A stretch of DNA of 34,894 bases from an uncultured Chloroflexota bacterium (GTDB lineage: Bacteria; Chloroflexota; Anaerolineae; Aggregatilineales; Phototrophicaceae). The translations under genes were made by a program, and so were the position numbers. The first letter of the stretch is position 1, and every line of letters starts with the position of its first letter. The DNA is taken from positions 1 through 34,894 of the forward strand of contig CAIRDJ010000059.1 of assembly GCA_903877335.1 (NCBI GenBank), in the 5' to 3' direction. A model generated the notes under the pieces. The model saw only the letters and a program-made list of their open reading frames with translations, ran no database searches and had not been told where the DNA came from. Positions 5,146 to 28,401 of the stretch are shown piece by piece.

Positions 5146-5319
5146 GTAAGAACCTCCAAATTATAGGGCTAATTGGGCAAGTAAAGCGAAAACTCGCTCC
5201 TAACATTGTACTGATTTAATGGGCAATTTTCCACAAAATCTAACCTATATTACTATAACTTTTTGCCTACGGATAGGTATAAAATTTGCTCATCCCAACC
5301 AATGAATGAAGGTAGTGTC

Positions 5320-8927: not shown

Positions 8928-11549
8928 ATGAAGGTCACTTTTGTGAACAACCAGCAGTATAGCTCTAGCGCAATTTATCCCCCAAGCCACAGCATTTCAG
9001 GTTTAGCTTGTATCGCACACTTGGTAAAACTTCAGGGTCACACCACACCTAGCTTTCCACAAGTGGATGAGCGTGAACTTCAACAAGCCAGTGCCTTGCA
9101 AAAAGTGGCAAAGCAAATGGGGTTGGAATCACACATGATGCTCATTGCCAAAGACCATCTGGAAGAGTTGGCGGAAATAAATGCCCCCATCCTCATCCCC
9201 TTGCTTTCTGAGAGGTTGAATCAAGTTGAGTGGGCGATTCTTTGGAGCAAACGAGGTAATCTCTTCGAAGTATTAGACCCACAACTTGGGCGACGGTGGC
9301 TATCAACGGCGCAGTTGAATGAATTGATGCACCAAGCATCCATGACCATTTCTAGTCAAACATGGACGCAACTTGTTCAAAGTGAGTTGTTTCTGAAGGG
9401 AACCGCACGTTTGTTGCAGTCCCTACATTTGTCTGTTGAACACATCCAAGACTTGACCGAATCCTACCCTAGCCCAGAACAGATGCGGGTGTTGGATGCT
9501 GCCATCCGTTTTGTCGCGCAATTGACTCGTGAACAAGGTGGCATTTTCAAAGGGGAAGAGAGTTATCGCATGCTCAAATCCTTGTGTGATCGCTTTCTGG
9601 CACAACCGAGCGACCACCTTCTCCCCACCCGTTACTTCAGCGTGATTCCTCACCAAGAAAGCCAAGATTGGTTGTGGAGTGGGTATTGCGTGTTGGTCGT
9701 AGACGATTTTGCCGCCGTTGCACCCAGCGGTTCGGTGAACTGGCAACAGATTGTTGCCACGCTCAATCCCTTTCCACCACAGATTAGAAGTTATCTCACG
9801 AATCAAAGACTATTCCTTACCCTCACTTTTTCAGCTTTGCTATTGGGGGCACTAGGCACGTTCCTTCAAGTGATTCTATTGCGTGGGGTTTTGCTGGTTG
9901 TTGCACAAGTGGGGAACTTTGAACAACGATTACAAATTATTTTGGGCATTGCGTTGTTTTTCCTCATGCTGGGCTTGTTACGCTTAATGACCAACTTTGC
10001 CCTTGTGCGTTTAGGACATCAATTGGATGGGCGTTTGCGGACGACCATCTTGAACCTTTTGCCCACGCTACGTGACGATATTTTTCAGCATATTCCAATT
10101 GGAGACTTGGCAGAGCGCACCAGTAGCTTACGCGCGGTGCGCCATTTACCCTATTATTTTGGAGAGTCCGTCCAACTTCTCACTCAAATTGTGCTGACCG
10201 CGATCGGCTTGATCTGGTTGGATTGGGTAGTTGCTTTGTTGGCTATCGTGCGTGTTGCCATTTCGTTCAGCTTAATTGGCTTGGTGAATATTCTCAATTT
10301 GCCCAATAAGATTACTCGTCAAAATCTGGGATTGCTGGGACAGTTTCACCTAGACACCCTAATTTCTTTGGTGCCCATACGGTCGCATGTGGCAGAAGCC
10401 TCTACCACCCAGCAACATAACCACCTACTTGGACGGTGGTTAAAAGGTCGTTGGACGGAGCATCGCATTGAGATTGTGATTGAATGGGTGATAACCATAA
10501 ACTCCTTCTTGCTGGTGGCATTGATTATGTGGGTTTATTCGCTACGCACGACCACATCCAATTATTGGCTACTGGTGCTGTATTGGAGCATCTCATTGGA
10601 TGTTTTGGGCACACAACTGATGAACATCATCTTTCTTGCCCGTCGCGAGCGCAGCAAAGTCGAGCGATTCATGCAACTGGTTGATGATGCGAATCAGTCT
10701 GCGCCTTCCGCAACTACCTCCACCGTTCCCATCGACTGGCAATCGCAAGGTGTGAATATTCAACTGCGTGATTTAACTGTTCACCTTGAATCCCAAACAT
10801 TACTTCGTTCGATTAACTTAGACCTTGAAGCTGGCGAACATGTCGCGGTGGTGGGTTTGTCTGGCGCGGGTAAATCTACCCTAGCGAATTTGATGTTGGG
10901 GCTTTACACCCACTTTGATGGATTCTTCGTGGTTAATGGTCAACCTGTCACCCCTCAGCTGTTCGACACATTAAGGCAACATACCGTTTGGGTCAGTCCT
11001 AATGTCAAACTGTGGAACCGCACCTTGTTGGAAAATCTACAATATGGCGCGGCTAAACCATTCCGCTCTTTGGAAGAAACGCTCACCAAGTCGTCGTTGA
11101 ACACGCTCATCGAGCGGTTGCCCGAAGGGATGCAAACGATTTTGTTTGAGGATGGAAAGCGGGTTTCTGGGGGTGAACGACAAAAGATTCAGTTTGGGCG
11201 TGCTCTACAACGTGAAGATGTCCGCCTCGTGATTTTGGATGAACCCTTCTCTGAACTGAATCACCAACAACACCGTGAAATGCTGGAGCACAGCCGGGCA
11301 ACTTGGCGCGATGCTACCCTGTTATACATCACTCATGATCTGGAATTGTCCACCACTTTTAAGCGTGTATTGGTTGTCCATGATGGGCAGATTGCGGAGG
11401 ACGGGGTGCCACAGGACTTGTTAGATGAGCCTACCCTGTATGCCCGCATGCACGCCAGCGCAAAAAGTTGGCAAGAGGCAAAACAACAAATGGGGAATCC
11501 ACGCTATATTCGGCTTCAAGATGGAGTATTAAAAGAAGGTGTGCCATAG
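8928..11549 (+). CDS. ABC exporter (fused TMD-NBD) with an N-terminal peptidase-C39-like domain (bacteriocin/peptide-exporter family, COG2274-like)
   Basis: C-terminal NBD: Walker A 'GLSGAGKSTL', signature 'VSGGERQKIQ', Walker B 'ILDEPFSELN'. Central segment of about 6 TM helices. N-terminal roughly 150 aa resemble a C39 domain ('SGLACIAHL' near the Cys-motif position), but Trp replaces the expected His ('EWAILW'), so it is possibly a non-catalytic C39-like domain. Confidence 0.8.
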   Translation: MKVTFVNNQQYSSSAIYPPSHSISGLACIAHLVKLQGHTTPSFPQVDERELQQASALQKVAKQMGLESHMMLIAKDHLEELAEINAPILIPLLSERLNQVEWAILWSKRGNLFEVLDPQLGRRWLSTAQLNELMHQASMTISSQTWTQLVQSELFLKGTARLLQSLHLSVEHIQDLTESYPSPEQMRVLDAAIRFVAQLTREQGGIFKGEESYRMLKSLCDRFLAQPSDHLLPTRYFSVIPHQESQDWLWSGYCVLVVDDFAAVAPSGSVNWQQIVATLNPFPPQIRSYLTNQRLFLTLTFSALLLGALGTFLQVILLRGVLLVVAQVGNFEQRLQIILGIALFFLMLGLLRLMTNFALVRLGHQLDGRLRTTILNLLPTLRDDIFQHIPIGDLAERTSSLRAVRHLPYYFGESVQLLTQIVLTAIGLIWLDWVVALLAIVRVAISFSLIGLVNILNLPNKITRQNLGLLGQFHLDTLISLVPIRSHVAEASTTQQHNHLLGRWLKGRWTEHRIEIVIEWVITINSFLLVALIMWVYSLRTTTSNYWLLVLYWSISLDVLGTQLMNIIFLARRERSKVERFMQLVDDANQSAPSATTSTVPIDWQSQGVNIQLRDLTVHLESQTLLRSINLDLEAGEHVAVVGLSGAGKSTLANLMLGLYTHFDGFFVVNGQPVTPQLFDTLRQHTVWVSPNVKLWNRTLLENLQYGAAKPFRSLEETLTKSSLNTLIERLPEGMQTILFEDGKRVSGGERQKIQFGRALQREDVRLVILDEPFSELNHQQHREMLEHSRATWRDATLLYITHDLELSTTFKRVLVVHDGQIAEDGVPQDLLDEPTLYARMHASAKSWQEAKQQMGNPRYIRLQDGVLKEGVP

Positions 11550-11552
11550 ACC

Positions 11553-13826
11553 ATGAATCAACTCTTAGAAACAGTGCAAAATAGTCAAGTATTCAAGTTA
11601 ATTAGTGAATTTTGGGTCTCGACCAGCCAATCAAGCCCATTGATTGGGCTATTCGTGATTACCATGATCGGGTATTTTGGGGGGCGTTTACTCGCCAACC
11701 TTCTTTTTCTCATCATGCGTTCCAACGGAAGAACCGTCAACAAGCAACAACGAATGTTCTTGGGGTCCGTCTTCAATGTGTTTGGTTTGGCGGTTGCACT
11801 TGGTATTGGTATTCAACTGGTGCAATTTGACTTACGGGGGGAGACCTGGTTGTTCAACTTTTATGTTGTTGTCATGATCGGTAGCGTCCGTTGGTTTATG
11901 GTGGAATTGAGCGAAGAAATCAATCCGGCTATCTTGCGACGCTTAGGTTATGTGCTGTCAGTGCGCATTAGTTCTACGAGCTACTGGTTGGTAGCTTTCT
12001 TATATCTTGCGTATGTCTGGATTTCGTGGCCCATCCCCTGTGCTCCCCAGTGTGTGGGCGCGTCGCTGACCAACATCAACATGAGCGGCTTGGAATTACG
12101 CTTCGCAAACTTGACCAATGCCAACTTACGCAACTCAAGTTTTCAACGCGCTAATTTAACTGGAAGCAGTTTTGTTGGGGCGCAACTTGTCCGAGCAAAT
12201 TTTCGAGAGGCGAATTTGACGGGTGTGGATTTTTCTGGTGCCAACCTCACCTACGTTGATTTTGGCGGGGCAATTCTGGACAACACCCGCTTTGCAGGTG
12301 CCAATTTAACCGGCGCCAATTTAACCGCCGTTGACTTCAGCACGCTTGTTATTGATGGTGCCATTCTTGATGGAGCCAAATTGATTCAATCGAAAATGTC
12401 TGGCGTTGATTATCCTGGGGGTAGTCTAATAAGTGCTGATTTGACGAATGCCGACCTAAGCAATACCAATCTTCGCGGTACACAGTTTTCACGTGCAGAT
12501 TTATCTGGAGCGAATCTGTCGGGTTCCAAGTTGAACGGCTCGGTTTTCAACCTTGCTAACCTGGGTGATACGCACATGACCGATGCTGATTTAAGTGGCT
12601 CGCTGATGATTGGTGCAGATCTACTTTCATCAAATATGTCCAACAGTCGCCTGGTTGGCGTGAACTTCATTGGGGCGGATTTGTCGGGTGCGAATTTGTC
12701 CGGCACCAACCTCGCTTCTATTCTGCTCTTTAGAAGTGAGTTTGACGATAGCCTCGAAGTTACCGACGTAACACTGGCTTCGTTAAATGCCAGTGAATTG
12801 ACCGCCGTAATCAAGAATGCGGAGTATTCAGGAATCATCACGGATGAAAACGTGGTTTGGCCCACTGATAAAGAACGTCTCTTGAAAGATATTCTGGGGA
12901 TTCCATTTGTCTATGAAGTTGACCCTGAGTCCTTACTTGTTTCATTGCCCAAGCCCACCGAAGTGCGCGGAAATTTATCCATCTATGTCTCTGAAGACTT
13001 GAGTAGATTATATGATGTCGCGCTAGAAGGATTTTCAGAAAGTGGATTTCAAGGGACGATGAATCGGCATGCATTGGTGGAGGCAAACGAGTTTCTTGAC
13101 CTTTGCACCCAAACAGACCTTAATCTGGCAGTGTACACTTTGAATGTCCCATCAGAGGCGGATTTAGCAGTCTGCGAGTCCAACGGTGTGGCACTGTCAA
13201 GTTTTCCGATTGGCGCGCGGGTTGCTTTGGTGGCGGTGGTTAACCCCAAAAATACGGGGGCTACACAACTTTCCACAGGCAAGTTAGGCATAGCCCTCAC
13301 TGTAGAGCGGTGGAGCGATGTGGAAAGCTGGTTTCAAGCGGTCGATATTGAGCGTTATCTGCCCGTTCCAGAAACCCCCGGATTTGAGATTCTCTCGGAA
13401 TTGTTTACGGGAGGGCGCGATGACCTGCTGTTGGAAAGCAAAAATACATCGTTTGTCACGTCTAATGTTGATGTCATTTTGGGGGTAACATCCAATGAGA
13501 ATGCTATTGGGTTCCTAGACTATAACTACTACTTTGAGAATAAGACGTTGTTGACTGGACTGCAGTTGGACGGTGCGAATATTTCAGAGGAGTTGCCAAA
13601 AGCCTACCCCCTCGCTGAACCTATATTCATTTACTTCGATCAGAATCGATTAGTCAGTCATCCAGAATTGGTGTCCTACATCGGTTACTTCATCGCGAGA
13701 GTTCCTGCTGAACAAACCAACTTTGGTCAACTCACCTTAAACAACCATGTGCGCGTCTCCATTATTCAAGACTTGCATGACATGGCACAGCTTGAAACCG
13801 CAAACCCTACCAGTGAAGGATCATAG
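11553..13826 (+). CDS. Membrane-anchored pentapeptide-repeat protein with a C-terminal domain of unknown function
   Basis: ATG 3 nt after the upstream stop. About 4 N-terminal TM helices. About 45 consecutive pentapeptide repeats, A(D/N)L/F-x-x (e.g. 'ANLTNANLRNSSFQRANLTGSSFVGAQLVRANFREANLTGVDFSGANLTY'). A C-terminal segment of about 370 aa carries no motif I recognise. Confidence 0.8.
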   Translation: MNQLLETVQNSQVFKLISEFWVSTSQSSPLIGLFVITMIGYFGGRLLANLLFLIMRSNGRTVNKQQRMFLGSVFNVFGLAVALGIGIQLVQFDLRGETWLFNFYVVVMIGSVRWFMVELSEEINPAILRRLGYVLSVRISSTSYWLVAFLYLAYVWISWPIPCAPQCVGASLTNINMSGLELRFANLTNANLRNSSFQRANLTGSSFVGAQLVRANFREANLTGVDFSGANLTYVDFGGAILDNTRFAGANLTGANLTAVDFSTLVIDGAILDGAKLIQSKMSGVDYPGGSLISADLTNADLSNTNLRGTQFSRADLSGANLSGSKLNGSVFNLANLGDTHMTDADLSGSLMIGADLLSSNMSNSRLVGVNFIGADLSGANLSGTNLASILLFRSEFDDSLEVTDVTLASLNASELTAVIKNAEYSGIITDENVVWPTDKERLLKDILGIPFVYEVDPESLLVSLPKPTEVRGNLSIYVSEDLSRLYDVALEGFSESGFQGTMNRHALVEANEFLDLCTQTDLNLAVYTLNVPSEADLAVCESNGVALSSFPIGARVALVAVVNPKNTGATQLSTGKLGIALTVERWSDVESWFQAVDIERYLPVPETPGFEILSELFTGGRDDLLLESKNTSFVTSNVDVILGVTSNENAIGFLDYNYYFENKTLLTGLQLDGANISEELPKAYPLAEPIFIYFDQNRLVSHPELVSYIGYFIARVPAEQTNFGQLTLNNHVRVSIIQDLHDMAQLETANPTSEGS

Positions 13827-14861
13827 ATGACAACTGCTAACCCACTTCTAGCCGCGCTAAAGACTGCTACTTTGAACTTTAGGTTGATCGTAATTGTACT
13901 GCTCTTCCTCATTTTGGCAGGTTGCCGCTCTGTCGCGCCGGGGTGCCCTCCAGATTGTAAAGGCATCCGCCTTCGACAAGGCAACTTTTCGGGGATAAAT
14001 TTGTCTAATTCAGATTTGCGCGATGCTGAAATCCGCGGTTCTAATTTGGCAAACGCTAACTTTCGTGGTGCAGACCTCTCTGGTGCAAACCTGTCTGAGT
14101 CTTCATTAGTGGGTGCTGACTTCTCAAATGCCATCTTGGACGGCGCGATTTTTAGTGAGTCAAACTTGAGTGGCGCCATTTTAGATAACTCGCGCATGAT
14201 TGGAACGAACCTCAGTCGCGCTCAATTAATTGGGGTGGATTTTCGCACCGCTGAGCTTGCTGCCATAATCATGAACGAGTCCGTGTTGATCGGCGCGAAT
14301 CTTTCTGATCGCTCGCTTCAGGGTGTTCAGTTGATTGGGGCAGATTTACGCGGTGCCAGTCTCATCAATACGGATTTATCGGGAGCCACGTTAGGGATTA
14401 TCGCTGGGCGCGGAACCACTTTGCGAGGTGCGAACTTGTCAGGTGCGATTTTGGAGGGAGCCACGCTCAACGGGGTTGACCTTTCTGGGACCAACATGAG
14501 CGGCGTAAATTTGCGGGGGGCGGTCATTGGGCGACGCTCACGAGCCTTGGGCGCAAACCTTGAAGGAGCAAACTTAGAAAACGCTTTGTTGGAAGAAGTG
14601 AGTTTTGCGGGGGCGGATATGAAAGGAGTGAGTGTGGCTAACAGTTTGATCCAACGCATCCGTCTCAACGGCGCCCAACTGCACGATGCATCCTTTGAGG
14701 GTGCGTCGTTTGTGTTGACGCGCCAAGATGAGGCAGAGGAACGCCCAAGCTCCATCTTTGATTTGAATGGTGCCATCTACAATGAAAATACGGTGTTCCC
14801 AGCAGGCTACGAAGCACCGAGCAGTGCTCTGTTAGACGAACAGACTAGTAGCAACCCTTAA
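13827..14861 (+). CDS. Pentapeptide-repeat lipoprotein
   Basis: ATG immediately follows the upstream TAG (translational coupling). Signal peptide with lipobox 'ILAGC'. Nearly the whole mature protein is pentapeptide repeats ('SNLANANFRGADLSGANLSESSLVGADFSNAILDGAIF...'). Confidence 0.8.
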   Translation: MTTANPLLAALKTATLNFRLIVIVLLFLILAGCRSVAPGCPPDCKGIRLRQGNFSGINLSNSDLRDAEIRGSNLANANFRGADLSGANLSESSLVGADFSNAILDGAIFSESNLSGAILDNSRMIGTNLSRAQLIGVDFRTAELAAIIMNESVLIGANLSDRSLQGVQLIGADLRGASLINTDLSGATLGIIAGRGTTLRGANLSGAILEGATLNGVDLSGTNMSGVNLRGAVIGRRSRALGANLEGANLENALLEEVSFAGADMKGVSVANSLIQRIRLNGAQLHDASFEGASFVLTRQDEAEERPSSIFDLNGAIYNENTVFPAGYEAPSSALLDEQTSSNP

Positions 14862-14894: not shown

Positions 14895-14922
14895 GTAGAA
14901 GGGAAGTCGATTTCCCTTCTAC
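14895..14922. terminator. Perfect 11-bp inverted repeat (GTAGAAGGGAA-gtcgat-TTCCCTTCTAC) between convergent operons; putative bidirectional terminator
   Basis: Read directly from the sequence. Lies in the 76-bp gap between the + operon ending at 14861 and the - operon ending at 14938. No U-tract on either side. Confidence 0.45.
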
Positions 14923-14937: not shown

Positions 14938-16380
14938 TTAGTTGCCGCCCGTGTTCTGCTGTTGCTGTTGTTGTTCTCCCGCGCCAAAGCCGCCCATCGC
15001 CCCAAACCCTTGTTGCTGTTGAGCGCCTGCGCCAAAGCCACCCATCGCCCCAGATCCTTGTTGCTGTTGTTGTTCTCCTGCGCCAAAGCCACCCATCGAC
15101 CCAAATCCTTGTTGCTGTTGTTCGCCTGCGCCAAAGCCGCCCATCGACCCAAATCCTTGTTGCTGTTGTTCGCCTGCGCCAAAGCCGCCCATCGACCCAA
15201 ATCCTTGTTGCTGTTGAGCACCTGCGCCAAAGCCACCTGTCGCACCAAATCCTTGTTGCTGTTGTTGAGCACCTGCACCGTCTAGTGGGGTAAATGCAGA
15301 GGGCGCAATAGGCGTTGCTAAGGAGAACGGCGCACTGTTGTCCAATGGCGAAGCTGAAAAATTAGTGGACGTGTCAGACACCAAATCATCTGGCAAAGGC
15401 AAAATCAAGGGGTTTTCACTGGGCAACAACATCACGCGGACATTTGGTGAAATTTTGTCAATATAGTAGTAGGTGAGTACCTCTGGGGACTCTTGCAACG
15501 CCTTGCCGATTTCACGCGCAGCGTTGGCTTGCGCAAGGGCGCGGATTTCTGTTGCGGTTGCATCCCCTCGGGCTAGGCGAATCTCACGCTCTGCTTGAAA
15601 CAATGCCGCTTCTTGTTGTTCTTTCGCCACTTGTTTGGCTTCAACTGATGCTGCATATTCTACCGAGAAAGTAATATCACGAATGAGGAATTGATCCAGC
15701 TCGAATCCTTTAAGCGTAAGCTCTTCGCGCAGCAGTCGTTCAAGCGTGGCTTCAAGTTCGGCACGGGAGGAACTATTGACCTCATTCACGGTGAATTTTG
15801 AAACCTCTGTGCGCACAAAGCCCCGCACTAACGGACGGATCAAATCATCGATGTAGCGATCTTGCCAATCCACATGCACTTGTGTCACTTGATTCACATC
15901 AATGCGAAAGATGGTGGAGGTGCTAAGGCGCACTTCTTGCCCGTCTTTGGTACGCGCTCGAATTGAATCATCCCCAATATCTTCCGCTGAACCCTCTCCA
16001 TTTGACATGGTGTAGGTTTGGTAGTAGATCGGGTAGAGTTGCACTTGCTCTAAAAATGGAATAATCACATGTAAACCGGCGCGAAGGGGCTGTTGGCGGA
16101 TACCATCAGGGGATAAAGCCGAAATCACCACGGCAACCGCAGCGGGTTGAATGAAGTTGACCGCGTATCCCAGTACGACAATTCCAAGCGTGAAGGTGAA
16201 CGGGATCAACACTTGCGCAGAAATAAGCCGCAGGAACGCAAGTACAAGCCCTTGTCGTGTCAAGGTGAGCACGAACAAAACTACGATGTAGATCACAAAT
16301 CCAACGACGGCAACATTGGATAGGATAGTAAGGAGCGTATCTATGTTAAATGCAATGAACGCCGATGAACTTGGCATCAT
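14938..16380 (-). CDS. SPFH/band-7 (flotillin/HflK-like) membrane protein with a C-terminal Gly/Gln-rich tandem-repeat tail
   Basis: N-terminal TM helix, SPFH-type core, and coiled-coil Ala/Glu-rich segment 'AKQVAKEQQEAALFQAEREIRLARGDATATEIRALAQANAAREIGKAL'. The tail is 7 repeats of a 16-aa unit. Start is probably the ATG-ATG at 16380/16377 ('MMPSSSAF...'); the upstream in-frame ATG at 16434 would overlap the NfeD-like gene. Confidence 0.75.
   Translation of the reverse strand: MMPSSSAFIAFNIDTLLTILSNVAVVGFVIYIVVLFVLTLTRQGLVLAFLRLISAQVLIPFTFTLGIVVLGYAVNFIQPAAVAVVISALSPDGIRQQPLRAGLHVIIPFLEQVQLYPIYYQTYTMSNGEGSAEDIGDDSIRARTKDGQEVRLSTSTIFRIDVNQVTQVHVDWQDRYIDDLIRPLVRGFVRTEVSKFTVNEVNSSSRAELEATLERLLREELTLKGFELDQFLIRDITFSVEYAASVEAKQVAKEQQEAALFQAEREIRLARGDATATEIRALAQANAAREIGKALQESPEVLTYYYIDKISPNVRVMLLPSENPLILPLPDDLVSDTSTNFSASPLDNSAPFSLATPIAPSAFTPLDGAGAQQQQQGFGATGGFGAGAQQQQGFGSMGGFGAGEQQQQGFGSMGGFGAGEQQQQGFGSMGGFGAGEQQQQQGSGAMGGFGAGAQQQQGFGAMGGFGAGEQQQQQQNTGGN
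14959..15272. repeat. About 6.5 copies of a 48-bp tandem repeat within the 3' end of the SPFH gene, encoding (GFG[AS]MGGFGAG[AE]QQQQ)n
   Basis: Near-identical 48-bp units visible in the DNA (e.g. 15121-15168 and 15169-15216 are essentially identical). Overlapping ORFs in the other frames and strand are artefacts of the repeat. Confidence 0.85.
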
Positions 16381-16405
16381 AGGGTCAACCTCGCTGTGTT
16401 CTGTT

Positions 16406-16852
16406 TTATCCGATAGCTTGCAACACTGCTTCAAATGGCGTTTGTTGATCTATGACGACCGTCACAACCCCATGCAACAGATTTTCGACCGCATAGCGGT
16501 GTTGATTTGTGAATTCGGTTTTCAGAATAACTTCACCGTTCAAATCATTTATTTCTAAAATGGCACTAGGAACGGATTCTATATTGCCATTCTTGTCCAA
16601 ATATTGAAATAGTGCAACGTCGCCGGCTTGAAGTTTACTTTTGTCGGCAGGCACGAAAATAGCCACAGTGCTGCGACTGTCCACGACCTGAGAATCCACA
16701 GAGTAGATTTTGACCGCCAGCGGAAAGGTGAAAAAACCAACAATCCATGCCAAAACCACCACAAGCAACAGCGTCATGACAATCAGGAGAAACACACGGT
16801 TCGTGCGTTGAAGCTCGATCAGAGAATAGGGAAGGTTATTTGAATCATTCAT
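16406..16852 (-). CDS. NfeD-like small membrane protein (SPFH-operon partner)
   Basis: 148 aa. N-terminal TM helices 'LLIVMTLLLVVVLAWIVGFFTF' followed by a beta-rich soluble domain. Lies immediately upstream of, and co-directional with, the SPFH gene, which is the canonical NfeD-stomatin/flotillin arrangement. Call rests on context and architecture only. Confidence 0.5.
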   Translation of the reverse strand: MNDSNNLPYSLIELQRTNRVFLLIVMTLLLVVVLAWIVGFFTFPLAVKIYSVDSQVVDSRSTVAIFVPADKSKLQAGDVALFQYLDKNGNIESVPSAILEINDLNGEVILKTEFTNQHRYAVENLLHGVVTVVIDQQTPFEAVLQAIG

Positions 16853-16854
16853 AA

Positions 16855-18954
16855 CTACTCGCTGTCAATCATAATCAATGTCTTGGAATACTTAATGAGT
16901 GCCTGTAGTACGCGCACCTTGTTTTCGGGGTCTAGCGCAACCAGATTCTCATCAATGATGGTGAGGTCTGGTTTTTGTAAAATGGCACGCGCAACGAAAA
17001 TGCGGTTGCGCTCCCCATGTGAAAGCCTCCATTCGGTTTCGCCCACCTTTTGATGAATGCCAAAGGGCATGTCATGCATTAACCCACCTAAACCCAATTC
17101 CTCACACAGTGCTTGCGCTTCTGCCAGATCGCCGGGGGTGGGGGTTCGGTTGCGCCCCATCAAAAGATTATATGCCAGCGACCCGTTGAGAATGTGATTT
17201 TGCGCGCTTGCCGAAACATACGCGATATTCTTGCGCCAAATGCGCGGGTTCAAGGTGTATTGATCGTTGCCCGCATAGAGTAACACACCAGAGGTGGGTT
17301 GTCTAAGGTGACACAAGACCGTGGCGAGGGTGGATTTCCCGCTCCCGGTTTCTCCTTGTAACCATAGTGTTTCACCGCTGTGGATGGTTAAGTTGACATT
17401 GTTAAGAATGGGTTCAAGGTTTTCGGTAAATCGAAAGCGGATGTTGCGCAGTTCTAAAATGATGTTGCTTCGGTTTACCTTATCGGTCATCTGGGGGTGT
17501 TGTTCGTTGTTCTGTGAAATTGCCTTGAGTTGTTGAATTTGATGCCAGGCATGGGTGCTTTTAACTAACTCTGGAATAGAAAAAGCTAAGATTTGCAACT
17601 GCATAAATGCGAACAACCACAGCGACAGACGCAAGCTAATGCCTAAGGGGGAGATGACGGCGGGATAAAGCGCGAGGGGGGCAATCCCCAATAATGCTAC
17701 CAAAACCCCGCCATAGGGAATGAGCGTCCAAACGAGGGTGGCAAGTCGGTCATAGCGAGTTGCCTGTTGCAGATATTGAGCAAGCACAGCATCCTCACGT
17801 TTGAACCAGTTTGTCTCCTGCACGAGGCGTGTGGTGTGCCCGCGAAGGTTTTCCACAAATTGATGAATGAGGTGTTTGTGTTGGGTGTGGAAGGTAGGGT
17901 ATTGTTGCACGAGATACCGAATCATCCCCACACAAATTGCTAACCAGCTCGCCAGAATCAGTGCGCTGAATAAATCCCCAATGATGAGCAGTACAAGCGT
18001 CACCAAGATGAGAAATACGGCAGAAGCGATCACCCAGGCACTGCGTTGAAAACCGGATTCCTCTAACGTTTCGGTTTCCATCACATCGTGAAAATATTGT
18101 GTGCTGTGCTGGAAAACTTCGCCAATGGGCAACTGAAGGGTATCTTGGAAAAGTTGTTGTTTGATGTTCAAGCCGAGCTTGAGCGCGTAGTAGTGTTCTA
18201 GCCAGGTGAGCATCAGGGCAATCGGAATGCGCGAAACCCACACCAAAAGCCCTAACACTAGCCAAAACGGGTTGATCCGTCCGCTGACACTGGCTTGCCC
18301 CATGAGCGCGATCGCTGTGAAGAATAGAATGTAGTGCCCACTCCGCAAGCCAATTTGTAGCCCCAACCAGCGAAGAATTTGCTGGCGCGTATTGCTGAGC
18401 GCGTTGGTAATTTGTGTGTTGACTAACCAGATGCCTTGAATGTGGTGTTGAGCGAGATGTAGATCGAGGTAGGCTTCACGCACTGCCTGGCGACGAAACA
18501 TCGGAAGGCCCACATCTTGCAAAAGCTGCGTGGTAATTTCAAAGTAGGCACGCTGCAACGGTTCTCTGAAGACATTTTGCAAGCGTTTCAAGGACAATCG
18601 TGTTCGCCTTCCGTCGTTCCCCAAAAGTGTGGCATGACGGGCACCACACCGCAGCACCACCACATACCCGTGCAAGGATTCAGTTTGTGTGGTGGAAGGA
18701 ACGGACAAGATTGCGGGGGAGTTGGCGCGGAGTAGTTCCATCAGTTGCGCGTATGACACGGCAACTTCCGTCAAACCTAATTGGAGCTTATCGCTAGTCT
18801 GCAATAACCATTCTTCAAAGGGGAGTGTCTCTTGGGTTGCGTCATACGATTCGACAAGGTGCGGTTCAGCGGATTGCCGAAGCAAAACCAACGCTTGATG
18901 CAGGTTGGAAGCGTTCCAGATCAGGGTATTTTGAGCAAGTTGATTCAATCGCAT
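16855..18954 (-). CDS. ABC exporter (fused TMD-NBD) with an N-terminal C39-like domain lacking the catalytic Cys
   Basis: NBD: Walker A 'GETGSGKSTL', signature 'LSHGERNRIF', Walker B 'IIDENLVALD'. N-terminal roughly 170 aa show C39-like spacing with a His-motif-like 'LHGYVVVL' but no N-terminal Cys motif. The stop is 3 nt before the start of the NfeD-like gene. Confidence 0.8.
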   Translation of the reverse strand: MRLNQLAQNTLIWNASNLHQALVLLRQSAEPHLVESYDATQETLPFEEWLLQTSDKLQLGLTEVAVSYAQLMELLRANSPAILSVPSTTQTESLHGYVVVLRCGARHATLLGNDGRRTRLSLKRLQNVFREPLQRAYFEITTQLLQDVGLPMFRRQAVREAYLDLHLAQHHIQGIWLVNTQITNALSNTRQQILRWLGLQIGLRSGHYILFFTAIALMGQASVSGRINPFWLVLGLLVWVSRIPIALMLTWLEHYYALKLGLNIKQQLFQDTLQLPIGEVFQHSTQYFHDVMETETLEESGFQRSAWVIASAVFLILVTLVLLIIGDLFSALILASWLAICVGMIRYLVQQYPTFHTQHKHLIHQFVENLRGHTTRLVQETNWFKREDAVLAQYLQQATRYDRLATLVWTLIPYGGVLVALLGIAPLALYPAVISPLGISLRLSLWLFAFMQLQILAFSIPELVKSTHAWHQIQQLKAISQNNEQHPQMTDKVNRSNIILELRNIRFRFTENLEPILNNVNLTIHSGETLWLQGETGSGKSTLATVLCHLRQPTSGVLLYAGNDQYTLNPRIWRKNIAYVSASAQNHILNGSLAYNLLMGRNRTPTPGDLAEAQALCEELGLGGLMHDMPFGIHQKVGETEWRLSHGERNRIFVARAILQKPDLTIIDENLVALDPENKVRVLQALIKYSKTLIMIDSE

Positions 18955-19014: not shown

Positions 19015-19047
19015 CCCACAACCCATAATCTAGTTTATGGGTTGTGG
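19015..19047. terminator. Perfect 13-bp inverted repeat (CCACAACCCATAA-tctagt-TTATGGGTTGTGG), a putative terminator or regulatory hairpin between the SBP gene and the ABC-NfeD-SPFH operon
   Basis: Read directly from the sequence. Followed by 'AGCTTTTGC' on the + strand, with no clean U-tract on the - strand. Confidence 0.4.
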
Positions 19048-19059
19048 AGCTTTTGCATG

Positions 19060-20828: not shown

Positions 20829-22991
20829 ATGCCCATAATGTTGCCAGTTGTTTTTCTAGGCGGGGCGATCGCAGCTGGTGTAAGTTACCTGCAAGAAAAA
20901 GACCTCCCTGTTCCTTTCGTCAAACCGAGAACCAAGTTGATCGTCTATTTGGGGAATGAGTTGCGACCTGAAGCTGACCCAGAAGATCGCTTTGTTGAAC
21001 GGGTTAACCTGAGGTATCAGAAGTTTTTTCAAGAGCGTATTGATCCGCTATTGGGGGCAAGTCGTCAACATGACCTCGCTGAGCTTGCGCCGACAACACA
21101 ACTGCTGGAGCGTCCGGATGGGTACATTAACCGTCGGTTGGGATATTCGGTCATCGCAATATTTTTTGCGATTGCGGGTAGTCTTTCGCTTCCCTCTTTC
21201 TTGGTGGTGAGCGTGGCAGTCGGGTTATACGCTAACAACGACTTGTACTTTCAGGGGACGCGGAATTTACTGAAGGGTAAACCGGATCACTTGACCACGG
21301 CAATGCTGGCGATGGTGACATCTTGGATCGGTGGTTTTTGGATTGCGAACTCACTGGCTTCATTGTTGTATTACACGGGTGAGAAATTAGCTGCCGTCAG
21401 TGAAAATCGCGCTCGTCAGCGCATGATTGATGTATTCGGGCAGATTCCCCGCACTGCGCGAGTGATTTTGGAGGGCGAAGAAATTGAAATTTCTGTTTCT
21501 GCCTTAAAGGAGGGGGATGTTGTGATAGTCCGTGCCGGGCAAATCATCCCTGTTGACGGCGAAATCACTCAAGGGATGGCTTCTATCGATCAGCACATGT
21601 TGACTGGTGAATCTCAACCTGTTGAAAAAGAAGTGGGAGCTGGGGTTTTTGCCTCTACACTTTTGTTATCTGGCGAAATCCTCATCACCATCACCCGTAC
21701 AGGTACGGAAACAGTGGCATCTCAGATTGTTGAGGTGTTGAACAATACGGCTAACTTCCAGTTTGAAATGGTGAATCGCGGTAAGCGGATCGCCAATGCG
21801 TGGGCACTTCCAACCATTCTGATTGGTTTAGCGGGTGGGTTAGTTGGTGGGATTCGCTCATTGGTGGCGTTATGGAATGTCGATGTTGGCTCTCAAATCA
21901 TGATTACCGCCCCCATCAGCTTATTGAATTTCCTCGATAAAGCCTCTGCTAATGGTATATTGGTCAAGGATGGTCGCTCGCTTGAACTCTTAAAACTGGT
22001 GGATACGGTTGTATTCGACAAGACTGGTACGTTAACCGAGGAACGCCCAACCGTCGCAGCGGTACATTCATTCTCGGAGTTTAGTTCAGACGCCATCCTA
22101 CAAATTGCTGCCGCTGCTGAAAGCCACCAATCCCATCCGATTGCGCATGCCATCCTCCATGCTACAAAAGAACGAGGGTTGGAATTTCCTGCTGTGGAAA
22201 AAACAGATGTTGAGCTGGGTTACGGGTTGCGTGTGATGCTTGAAGGGCACGAAATTCTGGTGGGTAGCCAACGCTTCATGGCGATGAGTGATGTAGAATT
22301 GCCCATTGACCTGGAGGACTTGCTCACTCAAACAGCGGAGCTGGGGCATTCGATGGTGTTTGTTGCGGTGGACGCGCAATTGATAGGGGCGATTGAGTTG
22401 CAACCGACCGTCCGCCCAGAGGCATACACGGTAATTGCCAACCTACAGGAGCGGGGTATCAAAACCGTGATTATCTCTGGCGACCAAGAAGCACCCACGC
22501 GCAAGTTAGCCCACCAACTGGGGATTGATGAATATTTTGCCAACACCCTGCCGGAGAATAAAGCACAATTGGTGGAGATGCTGCAATCTCAAGGGCGAAA
22601 AGTATGCTTTGTGGGGGACGGCATCAATGACTCCATCGCATTGCGCAAAGCGGATGTATCGGTCTCCATTCATGGCGCAACGACTATAGCGGTGGACACC
22701 GCGCAAATTGTCTTAATGAGTAAGAACCTAGAGAAGTTGCCGTACCTATTTGAGTTGTCCCACACGTTCAACCGAAATGCCAGAGTTGGAACGTTGATTG
22801 CTACGGTGCCTGCCTTCATTCTGATTGGTGGGGTATTCATCTTAAATTTGGGAGTTTATGCTTCAATTGCATTTTGGAACATTGGCTTAGTAGCAGGAAT
22901 GTTGGTGGCGATGTCCCCTAGCCTCTCCAATACAGAACAGGATAAGCAACAGGCACTCCCACAAAATAGCCGTGTGGCGTTGGGTGAATAA
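20829..22991 (+). CDS. P-type ATPase, P1B-like, lacking the canonical CPC motif and an N-terminal metal-binding domain
   Basis: Phosphorylation motif 'DKTGTLT', hinge 'GDGINDSIAL', and P1B-type 'HP' motif ('SHQSHPIAHAI'). At the position of the TM6 CPC motif the sequence reads 'ITAPISLLNF'. No CxxC HMA domain. Confidence 0.8.
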   Translation: MPIMLPVVFLGGAIAAGVSYLQEKDLPVPFVKPRTKLIVYLGNELRPEADPEDRFVERVNLRYQKFFQERIDPLLGASRQHDLAELAPTTQLLERPDGYINRRLGYSVIAIFFAIAGSLSLPSFLVVSVAVGLYANNDLYFQGTRNLLKGKPDHLTTAMLAMVTSWIGGFWIANSLASLLYYTGEKLAAVSENRARQRMIDVFGQIPRTARVILEGEEIEISVSALKEGDVVIVRAGQIIPVDGEITQGMASIDQHMLTGESQPVEKEVGAGVFASTLLLSGEILITITRTGTETVASQIVEVLNNTANFQFEMVNRGKRIANAWALPTILIGLAGGLVGGIRSLVALWNVDVGSQIMITAPISLLNFLDKASANGILVKDGRSLELLKLVDTVVFDKTGTLTEERPTVAAVHSFSEFSSDAILQIAAAAESHQSHPIAHAILHATKERGLEFPAVEKTDVELGYGLRVMLEGHEILVGSQRFMAMSDVELPIDLEDLLTQTAELGHSMVFVAVDAQLIGAIELQPTVRPEAYTVIANLQERGIKTVIISGDQEAPTRKLAHQLGIDEYFANTLPENKAQLVEMLQSQGRKVCFVGDGINDSIALRKADVSVSIHGATTIAVDTAQIVLMSKNLEKLPYLFELSHTFNRNARVGTLIATVPAFILIGGVFILNLGVYASIAFWNIGLVAGMLVAMSPSLSNTEQDKQQALPQNSRVALGE

Positions 22992-24912: not shown

Positions 24913-26966
24913 CACCGACAACATCAAGTACCACCATTCCTGTTTTAGAGCTGGAAGATGTGCACATTGCCTATCAATCTGTGGGGAAATGGCATGACGT
25001 TGTTCACGGGGTATCGTTTGCCATACAACGTGGGCAAACGGTTGGGTTAGTGGGAGAATCCGGTTGTGGTAAAACTTCAACTGCCTATGCGGTGATGAAT
25101 TATCTCGGCAAGAACGGAAAGCAAAGCGGAGGGTCTATCCGTTTTAATGGGCGTGACATGCAGTCTTTTTCTCGCCAAGAGATACGCGATATTCGCGGCA
25201 AAAAGATGAGCATGGTCTATCAAAACCCTGCTTCGTCCCTCAATCCTGCCCTGCGAATTGGGCAACAAATGATCGAGGTTCTAGCTCGCCATGAGCATCT
25301 GTCTTCGCTGCAAGCCACCGAACGCGCCCTAGAGATGTTTCGTAAGGTGCGTTTACGTGACCCAAAAGCAATCATGCAACGCTATCCCTATCAGTTAAGT
25401 GGGGGGCAACAACAGCGTGTGGTGATCTCGATGGCGTTGGTAACAAACCCTGATCTGTTGATTATGGATGAGCCAACAACGGGTTTGGATGTCACCACAG
25501 AATCTGCCGTGTTGCGCTTGATAGCGGAACTCAAGCAAGAGTTTGATACCGCCATACTTTACATCAGTCATGATTTGCGTGTGGTGGCAAAAGTGTGTGA
25601 TTGGGTGGGAGTGATGTATGCTGGGCAGTTGGTTGAATGGGGGACAGCAGAGGCTGTTTTCAATCGCCCTCAAAATCCGTATACCGCCGACTTACTGGCT
25701 TGCACTCCTAGCTTGACGCAACATTATCAATCTAGCCGCTTGCGTACCATAGAAGGACGTGTCCCTGCACCCCATGCCCGTCAAGTGGGTTGTATCTATG
25801 CTTCGCGTTGCCGTTTCGCCCAGGCGGATTGTACCGAGACAACACCAATGATCCGCGAGTTATCATCTATGCCTTCTCATCAAGTGCGCTGTTGGCATTC
25901 CGAATCCATCCGAGAGCAACTTTCCCCAACTTTCCCCATCCAAGCCCCCCGCCCATCCGATAAAGCACTTTCTGCCGCGCCATCCAACGCAACTTTCTTA
26001 GAGGTTAAGGGGTTGAAGCAATACTATCGTGCCTCCTCCTCTATCGTGGATCGCGTGTTAGGTGGTGAGGCTCATTCGTTTAGGGCGGTGGATGATCTTT
26101 CGCTGGTTATTCAACAGGGGGAAGTGTTTGCAGTCGTCGGGGAAAGTGGGTCCGGAAAAACCACAACAGGGCGTGCAATCGTAGGCTTATTGAAACCAAC
26201 AGATGGCACCATCACTCTTCATGAAAAGTCGTTGTCCCCTCTTGTACAACACCGTTCTGCCAGGGAACGCCAAGCGATTCAAATGGTGTTCCAAAATCCT
26301 GAGTCCACCCTAAACCCTAACCACACCATCGGGCACATCTTGCATAGAACCTTGCTTCGTTTTGGTATCACTGGTCGGGGCGAGCGTCAGGAGAAAGTTG
26401 AACGCTTGTTGGAGTCTGTGCGGTTAGACCCAAGTTACGCTTATCGTTATCCAGGCCAGTTGAGCGGAGGCGAAAAACAGCGGGTGGCGATCGCACGTGC
26501 TTTCGCGGGTGATCCTCAGTTGGTTGTTTGTGATGAGGCGGTTTCGGCGTTGGATGTGTCAGTTCAAGCCACCATCTTGAATCTATTGATTGACTTAAAA
26601 GAGCAAACCCAGTGCTCTTACTTGTTCATCTCCCATGATCTCAGCGTTGTCCATTACATCTCTGACCACATTGCGGTGATGTATCACGGGCAAGTAATGG
26701 AAAGTGGCACAGTCGATCAAGTATTTGAAGCACCCCATCACCCGTATACCGCTATGCTGTTGAGTGCGATTGATTCTACCTATCATGCAGGTTCTTCCAC
26801 TGCGGATGCTTCACAAATGGAATCACAAGCCGACCAAGAGGGGTGTCCATTTCATGCTCGCTGCCCGCGCAAAATTAAAGACCTGTGTGAGCAAGTCGCT
26901 CCGCCCATTCAGTCCCCCACAGAGGGGCACCTCATCCGTTGCCATATCCCACTAAACGAACTGTAA
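24909..26966 (+). CDS. Fused tandem ATP-binding protein (DppD-DppF type) of the peptide/nickel ABC importer
   Basis: Two complete NBDs. The first has 'GESGCGKTS' / 'LSGGQQQRV' / 'LIMDEPTTGLD'; the second has 'GESGSGKTT' / 'LSGGEKQRV' / 'VVCDEAVSALD'. Each is followed by a Cys-containing oligopeptide-transporter C-terminal segment. The ATG overlaps the DppC stop (ATGA). Confidence 0.85.
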   Translation: MTPTTSSTTIPVLELEDVHIAYQSVGKWHDVVHGVSFAIQRGQTVGLVGESGCGKTSTAYAVMNYLGKNGKQSGGSIRFNGRDMQSFSRQEIRDIRGKKMSMVYQNPASSLNPALRIGQQMIEVLARHEHLSSLQATERALEMFRKVRLRDPKAIMQRYPYQLSGGQQQRVVISMALVTNPDLLIMDEPTTGLDVTTESAVLRLIAELKQEFDTAILYISHDLRVVAKVCDWVGVMYAGQLVEWGTAEAVFNRPQNPYTADLLACTPSLTQHYQSSRLRTIEGRVPAPHARQVGCIYASRCRFAQADCTETTPMIRELSSMPSHQVRCWHSESIREQLSPTFPIQAPRPSDKALSAAPSNATFLEVKGLKQYYRASSSIVDRVLGGEAHSFRAVDDLSLVIQQGEVFAVVGESGSGKTTTGRAIVGLLKPTDGTITLHEKSLSPLVQHRSARERQAIQMVFQNPESTLNPNHTIGHILHRTLLRFGITGRGERQEKVERLLESVRLDPSYAYRYPGQLSGGEKQRVAIARAFAGDPQLVVCDEAVSALDVSVQATILNLLIDLKEQTQCSYLFISHDLSVVHYISDHIAVMYHGQVMESGTVDQVFEAPHHPYTAMLLSAIDSTYHAGSSTADASQMESQADQEGCPFHARCPRKIKDLCEQVAPPIQSPTEGHLIRCHIPLNEL

Positions 26967-27031
26967 GACACTTTTGGGGAGCGCATAACGTGAGACATTC
27001 GCTCTCTTTGTATCACAATCATAGTAACTTA

Positions 27032-28201
27032 ATGAGTGGATTCGTAATCTTTAATATGAAGAGTATCTTGTATCAAATTCAACGTCGGACTGCCTTTGAT
27101 GAAGGGCATACCTTGTTCATGCGCGCTGAAGCAAGTATGAGTAATTTTGAACTGGATAGTGGGCAGATCGTAGAACCTGATATATTCTTGAAGGAGGGGG
27201 GATGGAGTTTATATGGGGCGCAAGATGGTCGCTTCATGTTGGTACAGTTGCCTCTGTCAGAGGATATCACACAAGTTCCTTTCATGACCCCTCACCAAAA
27301 CCAGCATGCCCAGCAATTATTAACTATTCCTTTTGAGGTTGCGCATACCCTCGTAGAGAACATTCCCGCACCTCAAAAGATCATCTTCATTCACATGATG
27401 GGGCGGACTGGCTCTACGCTGTTGAATAAGATTTTGAGCAATGTGGATGGGGTATGTAGTTTTTCTGAACCGGCTACCTTCCGCTTGGTGAGCAAATTGT
27501 GTGGGGGAGGGGTTGTTGACTCGGTGGGATGTCTCAACATTTTACGAACAGCGTTGCGGTTGCAATTCGGCGCACAGAATTATCAAGGCGACTTTCACAC
27601 GCTGGGGATTAAGTTGCGACATCGTGCAATGGATGATCTATCAATTTACCATTCGGCTTTTCCCACTGCTAAATACATTTTCATGTATCGTGAAGCGGTT
27701 GGTTGGATGCGCTCCTTTTATCGGTTGCTGATGGCATTTGGTGTGGGTAGGGACTTGGAGATAGCTGATGGTGCGCTTCCAGCAGATGCACGCCCCACAC
27801 AACAACTCCAAATCATCTGGAAACAAATCAGTGATAAACCGACCGATTACTTCAGTACGCATCCCGATTACGGCTATCTCGAGGAACTCTTGGCGGTGGT
27901 GTGGTCAAACTTGATGAACCAATACCTGCGGGGTGTGGAGCAGGGAATCCCATTATTAGCTGTGAATTTCAAAGATTTTACGCAAGATCGGCACGCAACC
28001 TTACAAGAGATTTTTTCGTTCGTCGGGCTAGACGCACAGCAAATTGACAGAGTGATGCAAGTCTATGAGGCAGACTCACAAGCTGGCACGGAAGTGGGAA
28101 GAGAGGGCTACAAGCACCCTATAACTGATGCCCAAGTCAAAAGATTCCTTGCTTACTTGAGCCTTCAACAGGGTTGCAATATGCCGGACTACACCTTATA
28201 G
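27032..28201 (+). CDS. Sulfotransferase-family-like protein, paralog A (tentative)
   Basis: P-loop-like 5'-PSB-type motif 'MMGRTGSTLLNKIL' (compare sulfotransferase 'RSGSTLL') and a downstream 'MYREAVGWMRSF' segment resembling the 3'-PB region. Start chosen at 27032 ('MSGFVIFNMKSILYQIQRR') by parallel with paralog B ('MNGFGFPNMMSILYQIQRR'); the upstream extension overlapping the ABC ATPase gene is rejected. Confidence 0.45.
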   Translation: MSGFVIFNMKSILYQIQRRTAFDEGHTLFMRAEASMSNFELDSGQIVEPDIFLKEGGWSLYGAQDGRFMLVQLPLSEDITQVPFMTPHQNQHAQQLLTIPFEVAHTLVENIPAPQKIIFIHMMGRTGSTLLNKILSNVDGVCSFSEPATFRLVSKLCGGGVVDSVGCLNILRTALRLQFGAQNYQGDFHTLGIKLRHRAMDDLSIYHSAFPTAKYIFMYREAVGWMRSFYRLLMAFGVGRDLEIADGALPADARPTQQLQIIWKQISDKPTDYFSTHPDYGYLEELLAVVWSNLMNQYLRGVEQGIPLLAVNFKDFTQDRHATLQEIFSFVGLDAQQIDRVMQVYEADSQAGTEVGREGYKHPITDAQVKRFLAYLSLQQGCNMPDYTL

Positions 28202-28401
28202 CATTTGGGTATCATAAGGGATGGCTACTGTTGCTGGATGAGAGGCTACGATTTTTGAGATATAGGGCACGGAGTGGAGATCGTGGTTGGTAATGTGTCT
28301 GCACGCGCCGTCGAAGTGTCAGAAACCTTAGGGAAGCGGTTAACTCTAGCGAATAGGACTTGTTTTATTACAATCACATTTATGACAGGATAAGTAATTA
28401 G

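Follow-up and report, generated by a model that had tools for sequence, protein, structure and literature searches.

The best-defined clients of SPFH proteins are AAA proteases, FtsH in the case of HflK/C and the m-AAA protease in the case of prohibitin, and the targets of bacterial SPFH proteins are a long-standing question. Operons that pair an NfeD gene with an SPFH gene are common (PMC13086221). Among ATP-binding cassette (ABC) exporters, the NHLP/Nif11 cassette combines a HlyD-like adaptor (TIGR03794), an ABC protein with a C39 domain (TIGR03796) and a peptidase-less ABC protein (TIGR03797; Haft 2010, PMC2887384), and cyanobacterial cassettes of groups IV and V and of the fused group VII have also been described (Wang 2011, PMC3140520). 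HlyB functions with a dead C39-like domain (PMC11026475), and a review of adaptor architecture includes BesA, which lacks the hairpin, and EmrA, which lacks the membrane-proximal domain (PMC4446572). Here we describe a locus on contig CAIRDJ010000059.1 from an uncultured Chloroflexota bacterium (the window, meaning the whole 34,894-nucleotide stretch that we analysed), in which positions 14938-18954 are filled by three co-directional minus-strand open reading frames (ORFs): an ABC gene (ABC2), a gene for a 148-residue membrane protein and an SPFH gene. A model that had read the same DNA described these three genes as an ABC exporter with a C39-like domain followed by an NfeD-like/flotillin-like pair (the original prediction). 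We consider it likely that they form an operon for part of an ABC1/ABC2 exporter, its reduced adaptor and a prohibitin-like SPFH accessory.

The profile check on the 148-residue protein gave no NfeD match (PF01957) at E<=1 in Pfam or NCBIfam. An exhaustive HMMER search identified a family of proteins of 146-162 residues with the same layout, and 0 of 22 family members match NfeD at E<=1; a HlyD_3 match was present in only one of the 22 and was weak (E 0.011). In an AlphaFold2 model of the 148-residue protein (mean pLDDT 84), we found a long N-terminal helix (residues 7-42), a six-stranded barrel and short helices. This fold has no resemblance to solved NfeD C-terminal domains, and the barrel is of the HlyD_3 type. 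A hydropathy count gives one transmembrane (TM) segment, at residues 20-38. The annotation lesson is that a small membrane protein encoded upstream of an SPFH gene needs a profile test before it is labelled NfeD.

A hidden Markov model (HMM) of the small-protein family also matches proteins of 385-456 residues (E 1e-13 to 1e-30 for the full sequence) that are encoded beside homologous ABC genes in other phyla, and every match is split in two. The first piece (HMM positions 1-58) falls on residues ~1-60 of these long homologues and covers the tail, the TM helix and the first strand; the second (positions 59-147) falls on residues ~285-390 and covers the C-terminal barrel. The ~225 residues between both aligned pieces are missing from the 148-residue protein, and there is no space for them in the model. 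All six long homologues tested pass the Pfam HlyD_3 gathering score, some with Biotin_lipoyl_2 or HlyD_D23 matches, and the two that we ran against NCBIfam resemble type_I_hlyD and EmrA. Because the family HMM matches in two pieces and the long homologues carry HlyD_3, the 148-residue protein is, as judged from its sequence, a HlyD-family membrane fusion protein (MFP) from which the lipoyl and alpha-hairpin domains have been deleted. It is a truncated derivative of the HlyD family and not a canonical member, and we refer to it as the mini-MFP. The reduced adaptors of the BesA/EmrA type in the review cited above all keep the lipoyl domain, whereas the mini-MFP keeps the barrel without it; the mini-MFP is the most reduced membrane fusion protein that we found, and for research on type I secretion and PCATs it bears on what the barrel alone contributes. 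A PDB sequence search with the small protein gave nothing significant, and a PDB profile search gave the MacA barrel only (E 0.14). Likeness of the small protein to signal peptidase S26 or to type IX secretion sorting domains (E 0.07-0.15) was noise.

ABC2 has the TM domain and nucleotide-binding domain (NBD) of a type IV exporter, both homologous to those of PCAT1, ComA and HlyB. It scores 84 bits with Pfam ABC_tran, its TM domain and NBD align to the HlyB, PCAT and NHLM ABC1/ABC2 models of NCBIfam (far under their cut-offs), and its full-length PDB sequence matches include PCAT1. A low-confidence full-length AlphaFold2 model of ABC2, made from a 5-sequence alignment (mean pLDDT 65), was used solely for the N-domain span of the alignments to PCAT1 and HlyB. 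In Foldseek these two are the top matches, with ~700 aligned columns as compared to ~520-560 for core-only exporters, and TM287/288 and TmrAB are also among the fold matches. The C39-like domain that the original prediction had placed in the ABC exporter was not seen in ABC2 by a Pfam scan and holds up through homology only: when we aligned the ABC2 N-domain family to the ABC1-family C39 domains with hhalign, residues 42-130 matched with a probability of 94% (E 1.4e-7), and an iterated search also connects the two. There is no conserved His at the C39 His position in the ABC2 family and the stretch for the catalytic Cys is unaligned, so this domain looks catalytically dead, in the sense in which that of HlyB is dead.

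The ABC2 of the window clade has also lost the Q-loop Gln (VSASAQN, compared to APQFHEN in the family alignment and consensus) and the H-loop His (IDSE and a stop, compared to IAHP and a stop in the family). The whole ABC2 family (L017-L096; window 16855-16870) stops two residues past the H-loop His; the final ~40 residues of a normal NBD are missing, and the signature reads LSHGE instead of LSGGQ. When we ran PADLOC on the window proteins, we obtained only generic ABC-ATPase likeness, and an anti-phage defence system was rejected on this result.

With the ABC2 alignment as query, we found ABC2 homologues at 145 sites in GTDB species genomes and retrieved 80 loci. Of the 80, 60 have a second ABC gene (ABC1, ~900 residues) near ABC2, and the usual order is MFP-ABC1-ABC2, with ABC1 immediately upstream. 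There are also single-chain ABC1-ABC2 fusions, in L015 (1920-7010, 1696 residues), where a mini-MFP gene lies 15 nt past the fusion, and in L094 (7883-12874, 1663 residues). The co-occurrence and the natural fusions support a pairing in which ABC2 would be the second half of a heterodimeric PCAT/HlyB-type exporter and ABC1 its partner. In the window, ABC1 is encoded on the opposite strand outside 14938-18954 (Table 1), and thus the exporter is not whole within the three-gene stretch as originally described. A gene for a mini or full-length MFP adjoins ABC1 or ABC2 in most loci; the mini-MFP gene adjoins ABC2 in the window, and it adjoins ABC1 or an ABC1-ABC2 fusion in L015, L016, L010 and many others.

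The window ABC1 shares 70% identity with its counterpart in L013, a syntenic locus, and ~29-30% with those in L011 and L015. Its Pfam Peptidase_C39 match is weak (E 0.0047), and alignment to canonical ABC1 proteins reveals that both catalytic residues are lost, the C39 Cys (MDCGPA to ISGLAC, Cys to Gly) and the C39 His (THFVV to VEWAI, His to Glu), while most ABC1 homologues elsewhere retain MDCGPA...THFVV. The N-terminal C39 domain with catalytic Cys and His that is expected of a PCAT is therefore present in neither ABC2 nor the window ABC1. The C39 Cys of ABC1 is also lost in five other Chloroflexota loci (L013, L018, L019, L021 and L027), and these losses could be independent or ancestral. 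In the NBD of the window ABC1, Walker A, Walker B and the H-loop are kept and the Q-loop Gln is replaced by Lys. The pattern of an ABC2 without Q-loop Gln and H-loop His and an ABC1 with an H-loop fits what would be expected for an asymmetric heterodimer with one degenerate ATP site.

The SPFH/band-7 identity of the third gene product was upheld, with a Pfam Band_7 score of 110.4 bits against a gathering score of 23.6 (1.4e-31), and the flotillin label was not: the FloT model (NF058507) gave 14 bits against a cut-off of 700, and PDB sequence matches at E<=0.001 were to prohibitins only, led by prohibitin-2 (E 4.8e-13) and including prohibitin-1. The HflC model (TIGR01932) gave 19.5 against a cut-off of 134, and the operon has a single SPFH gene and no K/C pair. 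By these scores the SPFH protein is prohibitin-like, and is neither a flotillin nor HflC. Its nearest orthologues, at up to 49% identity (L010), sit in the same cluster in Chloroflexota, and remoter relatives come after ABC2 in other phyla. When we counted Lys and Arg residues around the TM segments, the SPFH domain was placed outside both in one-TM proteobacterial proteins, which have a Lys/Arg-rich N-terminal tail, and in two-TM Chloroflexota proteins, which have a Lys/Arg-rich loop. The SPFH domain is thus predicted to face outward, on the same side as the adaptor barrel. The 48-nt repeat that encodes the C-terminus of the SPFH protein is present in 5, 6 or 7 copies among near-identical metagenome contigs and causes N-gaps in two scaffolds; in a related species (L013), another Q/G/F repeat occupies this end. 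Because both the copy number and the L013 repeat differ, an FG-like low-complexity tail is kept while its sequence turns over.

To determine how the SPFH gene is distributed, we sorted the 80 loci according to their adaptor and searched for an SPFH gene no more than 10 kb away. We found SPFH in 17 of 23 mini-MFP loci as compared to 0 of 25 full-length-HlyD loci (Fisher p = 2e-8, a value that overstates independence because the full-length-HlyD systems form one clade in a neighbour-joining tree of ABC2, in which the mini/SPFH systems are the rest). Among mini-MFP loci with at least 5 kb on both flanks, SPFH is present in 14 of 17. Loci with SPFH belong to Chloroflexota (Anaerolineae, Caldilineae, Chloroflexia and Ardenticatenaceae), Desulfobacterota including cable bacteria, Magnetococcales and Rhodospirillales. 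The SPFH gene lies 14-52 nt past ABC2 in L049, L062, L074, L083 and L091, and the longest SPFH ORF overlaps the ABC2 end in L063 and L092; this close succession is seen in Anaerolineae, cable bacteria and Magnetococcales, and the Magnetococcales copy is Band_7 by Pfam. The association is retained despite ABC2 divergence to ~28-31% identity. The tight linkage of an ABC exporter gene to an SPFH gene, which was the core of the original prediction, is therefore conserved, and we propose that the SPFH protein serves the mini-MFP exporter subtype as its dedicated accessory. In the literature on SPFH proteins with HlyD/ABC systems and on heterodimeric PCATs, we found no description of an SPFH-exporter association. 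Here, one defined machine is linked to an SPFH gene in four phyla, and the presence of this gene with the barrel-only adaptor subtype and its absence with the other make for a concrete, testable client hypothesis.

Within the three-gene stretch, the spacer from the ABC2 stop to the ATG of the mini-MFP gene is 2 nt (TT), one less than had been given, and the spacer from the mini-MFP gene to the SPFH gene is 25 nt, as had been described, with a GAGG motif preceding the SPFH ATG. An alternative SPFH start, TTG 16434, was rejected: the ORF would overlap the mini-MFP gene, and this start is not used on near-identical contigs, where the gene calls begin SPFH 25 nt past the small gene. Because a terminator-like hairpin separates the SBP_bac_5 gene from ABC2 (Table 1), the trio is suggested to be its own transcription unit. 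At the other end, a perfect hairpin lies 16 nt past the SPFH stop, between convergent genes, and has no T-run, which is why the terminator scan did not list it; the transcription unit probably ends there. A sigma-70 promoter scan was uninformative, with matches no commoner than in shuffled sequence. The order of the trio is kept in relatives at 64-80% identity, so the three-gene synteny expected in other genomes was found, with a reduced adaptor in place of NfeD. Because the arrangement recurs where the small protein has 64-74% identity and its components recur across phyla, this comparison of sequences indicates that it is not chance. In all five genes tested, the ratio of non-synonymous to synonymous substitution rates (dN/dS) is 0.06-0.17, indicating purifying selection and that the genes are kept for some function. 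We propose that the ABC2, mini-MFP and SPFH genes are one operon and part of a specialised peptide/protein export machine.

Table 1. Coordinates of the exporter genes, their parts and neighbouring features in the window.
Feature	Position	Strand	Description
ABC1	8928-11549	+	873 aa; partner half-transporter, 5.3 kb from ABC2
Pentapeptide-repeat membrane protein	11553-13826	+	757 aa; Pfam Pentapeptide 1.5e-52; 3 nt past ABC1
Pentapeptide-repeat protein	13827-14861	+	344 aa; Pfam match; LAGC lipobox (read from translation)
Perfect hairpin	14895-14922	-	11-bp stem, 6-nt loop; GTAGAAGGGAA-ATCGAC-TTCCCTTCTAC; read directly from sequence
SPFH gene	14938-16380	-	480 aa; start ATG 16380; N-terminal TM segments, Band_7 core (nt ~15583-16152), Q/G/F-rich repeat tail
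Tandem repeat	14962-15265	-	48 nt x 6.3 copies (TRF); encodes QQQQGFGxMGGFGAGx units at SPFH C-terminus
148-aa gene (mini-MFP)	16406-16852	-	start ATG 16852; stop TAA 16408-16406; cytoplasmic tail with conserved NNLPYSLIELQRTNR, TM helix (residues ~20-43), six-stranded beta-barrel (~45-148)
ABC2 gene	16855-18954	-	699 aa; stop TAG; C39-like N-domain, six TM helices, NBD ending at H-loop
ABC2 NBD	16858-17460	-	Walker A GETGSGKST; signature LSHGE; Walker B IIDE
ABC2 C39-like domain	18565-18831	-	residues ~42-130; apparently catalytically dead
Terminator-like hairpin	19015-19048	-	14 pairs and T-rich tail; between upstream SBP_bac_5 gene and ABC2 start
P1B-like P-type ATPase	20829-22991	+	720 aa; TIGR01525 (heavy-metal subfamily) 412 bits, cut-off 346
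fam262 membrane protein	30962-31657	-	231 aa; N-terminal TM helix; 12 kb from ABC2

ABC1 and the genes for the 757- and 344-residue proteins make up a second unit, which is convergent with the ABC2/mini-MFP/SPFH unit; the start codon of the 344-residue gene directly abuts the stop of the 757-residue gene (0 nt). The 757-residue protein has a C-terminal region of ~315 residues without a Pfam match, and its L010 counterpart has Peripla_BP domains. Homologues specific to the 757-residue protein were found in L013 and L010, and at least 16 Chloroflexota loci have pentapeptide-repeat genes of the 344-residue family next to the cassette. The P-type ATPase is found beside the cassette in 12 loci, from Chloroflexota and Magnetococcales (L074 and L092). 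By manual reading, the window copy has no CPC-type motif in the TM helix before the phosphorylation site, VGSQIMITAPIS, and it has no match to an N-terminal metal-binding domain. When we searched the window with an HMM of the uncharacterised family fam262 (11 locus members), we found the membrane protein at E 2.1e-44; this family is present in the cassette neighbourhood of nine other Chloroflexota loci, and the window protein has no Pfam or PADLOC match. In L010, where ABC2 is 31% identical, the SPFH protein (49%), the ATPase (37%), a pentapeptide-repeat protein, ABC1 and the mini-MFP are all present.

Other neighbours recur outside the window. A DUF697-like small membrane protein is found in proteobacterial, Magnetococcales and deltaproteobacterial mini-MFP/SPFH loci (L069:6589-7119, L080:8306-8803, L074:6083-6688, L092:14140-14697 and 4865-5446, L031:18295-18816), and in L092 a DUF697-like gene directly follows the SPFH gene. 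A gene for a ParA/MinD-like ATPase (~252 residues) lies between the pentapeptide-repeat and SPFH genes in six Anaerolineae loci (L028:9292-10050, L030, L035, L041, L067 and L077). At 26939-29604 of the window there are two adjoining sulfotransferase-family genes (420 and 400 residues) and then a gene for an NMT1/TRAP-like binding protein, which appear unrelated.

Near many cassettes, small ORFs begin with MK[VI][KR][TS]x[IV]KAG(G), a candidate leader of 10-11 residues that looks like a new double-glycine-type leader. In six Anaerolineae loci, peptides of 61-67 residues with a CGC motif are encoded directly after ABC2 (leader ORFs at L028:6156-6341, L030:12185-12370, L035:7633-7824, L067:12119-12304, L077:12160-12363 and L041:12061-12258), and leader ORFs are also present in L031, L032, L050, L052, L056, L065, L066, L070, L072, L078, L085, L088, L090 and L095. 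In Planctomycetota and Acidobacteriota there are multi-repeat precursors (VKAG-xxxNHNxTL), with a KAG site ahead of each NHNxTL unit. The leader also precedes a LysM-like protein, a glutaredoxin-like protein and peptides that are hydrophobic or rich in Cys or Gly. The Flp-pilin-like ORFs of L038 fit the leader pattern but look like true Flp pilins and were left uncounted. No Pfam or NCBIfam model matches the KAG-type leader. In the window we found no KAG-leader ORF and no homologue of the 61-67-residue Anaerolineae peptides; the missing leader ORF fits a dead peptidase. Taken together, the loci make up a large exporter family, putatively heterodimeric and without a name, that spans phyla and has a candidate ultra-short leader.

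If the trio encodes part of an exporter with its adaptor and SPFH accessory, ABC2 would supply the degenerate ATP site and ABC1 the better-preserved site in the window clade. Because the ABC1 C39 domain lacks Cys and His and the ABC2 domain lacks the conserved His, the cargo would probably be recognised and not cleaved, as in HlyB. After its internal deletion of ~225 residues, the mini-MFP would dock on the transporter yet build no hairpin tube. The SPFH protein could be a prohibitin/HflKC-like scaffold that surrounds the ABC1/ABC2/mini-MFP complex as a ring or cage and might substitute for the lost adaptor domains. Together with the extracytoplasmic pentapeptide-repeat proteins encoded nearby, such a cage could stabilise or gate the complex or keep released cargo confined.

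Several observations count against this interpretation. The 148-residue protein is below every Pfam threshold. We infer contact between the SPFH protein and the exporter from gene association, and the outward topology from hydropathy and the positive-inside rule, both applied crudely. SPFH is missing from three mini-MFP loci whose flanks are complete (L019, L027 and L040), and a small number of ancient events, perhaps only one, may account for the co-occurrence. The window clade lacks the peptidase residues, several ATPase motifs and, in the window, KAG-leader cargo, and thus export is not assured.

It is a tentative possibility that the SPFH protein goes further and is a structural subunit, an outward prohibitin-like cage that would replace the lipoyl/hairpin tube and form a closed chamber for cargo, with the Q/G/F tail as an FG-like cap. 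If true, ABC-dependent secretion would have a new architecture, and a transporter would for the first time have an SPFH cage of its own. We consider it unlikely that the SPFH protein is a general membrane quality-control factor (HflK/C- or prohibitin-like, a partner of FtsH) that rides along with the exporter genes, under common envelope-stress control or as part of an inherited island, without taking a direct physical part in export. This explanation is favoured by the match to prohibitins, the nearest proteins of solved structure and scaffolds of AAA proteases, by a co-occurrence that one ancestral event could account for, and by the mini-MFP loci without SPFH; however, the adjacency is kept over four phyla with ABC2 as far apart as ~28-31% identity and often with spacers of 14-52 nt, SPFH is absent within 10 kb of all 25 full-length-HlyD cassettes, and there is no FtsH gene among the families that recur in the loci.

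Less probable again is that the window-clade system is no longer an exporter and may be a membrane sensor, a regulator or a structural complex with the SPFH and pentapeptide-repeat proteins. The loss of the C39 catalytic residues, both Q-loops and the ABC2 H-loop, in a 35-kb window with no leader-bearing cargo gene, is what such a change would leave behind, and purifying selection indicates that some function, of whichever kind, was kept. In contrast, the window proteins keep Walker A, a Walker B complete with Glu and the H-loop of ABC1, as do other asymmetric heterodimeric exporters that have one degenerate site, HlyB works with a dead C39-like domain (PMC11026475), and cargo genes may lie beyond the window. 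Finally, a short NfeD protein and an SPFH protein forming a classical microdomain pair of the YuaF-FloT or YqeZ-FloA type that scaffolds the ABC exporter, as originally suggested, would suit a small membrane protein that ends in a beta domain and is encoded directly upstream of SPFH, as well as the frequency of NfeD-SPFH operons (PMC13086221), but is very improbable given that neither profile nor fold gives an NfeD match and that the small protein reads as the exporter's own reduced HlyD-type adaptor. The original observation is thus partly confirmed and its interpretation partly supported.

The exporter operon with a mini-MFP and an SPFH accessory, which we continue to prefer, can be compared with four described systems. 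NfeD-SPFH pairs (YuaF-FloT, YqeZ-FloA and PH1510-PH1511) likewise have a small membrane protein gene directly upstream of SPFH; here, neither the sequence nor the profiles nor the fold of the small protein fit NfeD, and the conserved partner is an ABC exporter. The HflK/C-FtsH and prohibitin-m-AAA cages share with the SPFH protein an N-terminal anchor, an SPFH domain that is non-cytoplasmic (predicted here) and a gene that is genomically tied to a specific membrane machine. In contrast to these cages, the putative client here is an ABC exporter, there is a single SPFH gene, and the protein has a Q/G/F tail. As in the window, the ABC exporter of HlyB/HlyD has an inactive C39-like domain, and its MFP combines a cytoplasmic tail with a single TM helix and a beta-barrel; however, HlyB is a homodimer and the long hairpins of HlyD dock TolC, whereas here the exporter would be a heterodimer and the adaptor could not reach an outer-membrane duct.

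The closest likeness in gene content is to the NHLP/Nif11 cassette. Both have one adaptor and two ABC halves, only one of them with an active C39 domain, and both have natural half-half fusions and small leader-bearing precursor genes nearby. Most of the 80 loci have the architecture of an adaptor, a C39-ABC and a peptidase-less ABC, which the window splits over two convergent units. The NHLP/Nif11 models themselves score these proteins low (ABC2, 110 vs 709; ABC1, 141 vs 853; full-length MFP homologue, 37-55 vs 156). The leader here, MKxKTxIKAG(G), is neither NHLP nor Nif11, and the peptidase of the window clade appears dead. Unlike that cassette, the one here includes an SPFH gene and an adaptor without the lipoyl and hairpin domains. 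Taken together, these comparisons indicate that the system is a variant of the known three-gene cassette of HlyD, C39-ABC and ABC, in which the mini-MFP and the SPFH protein are new.

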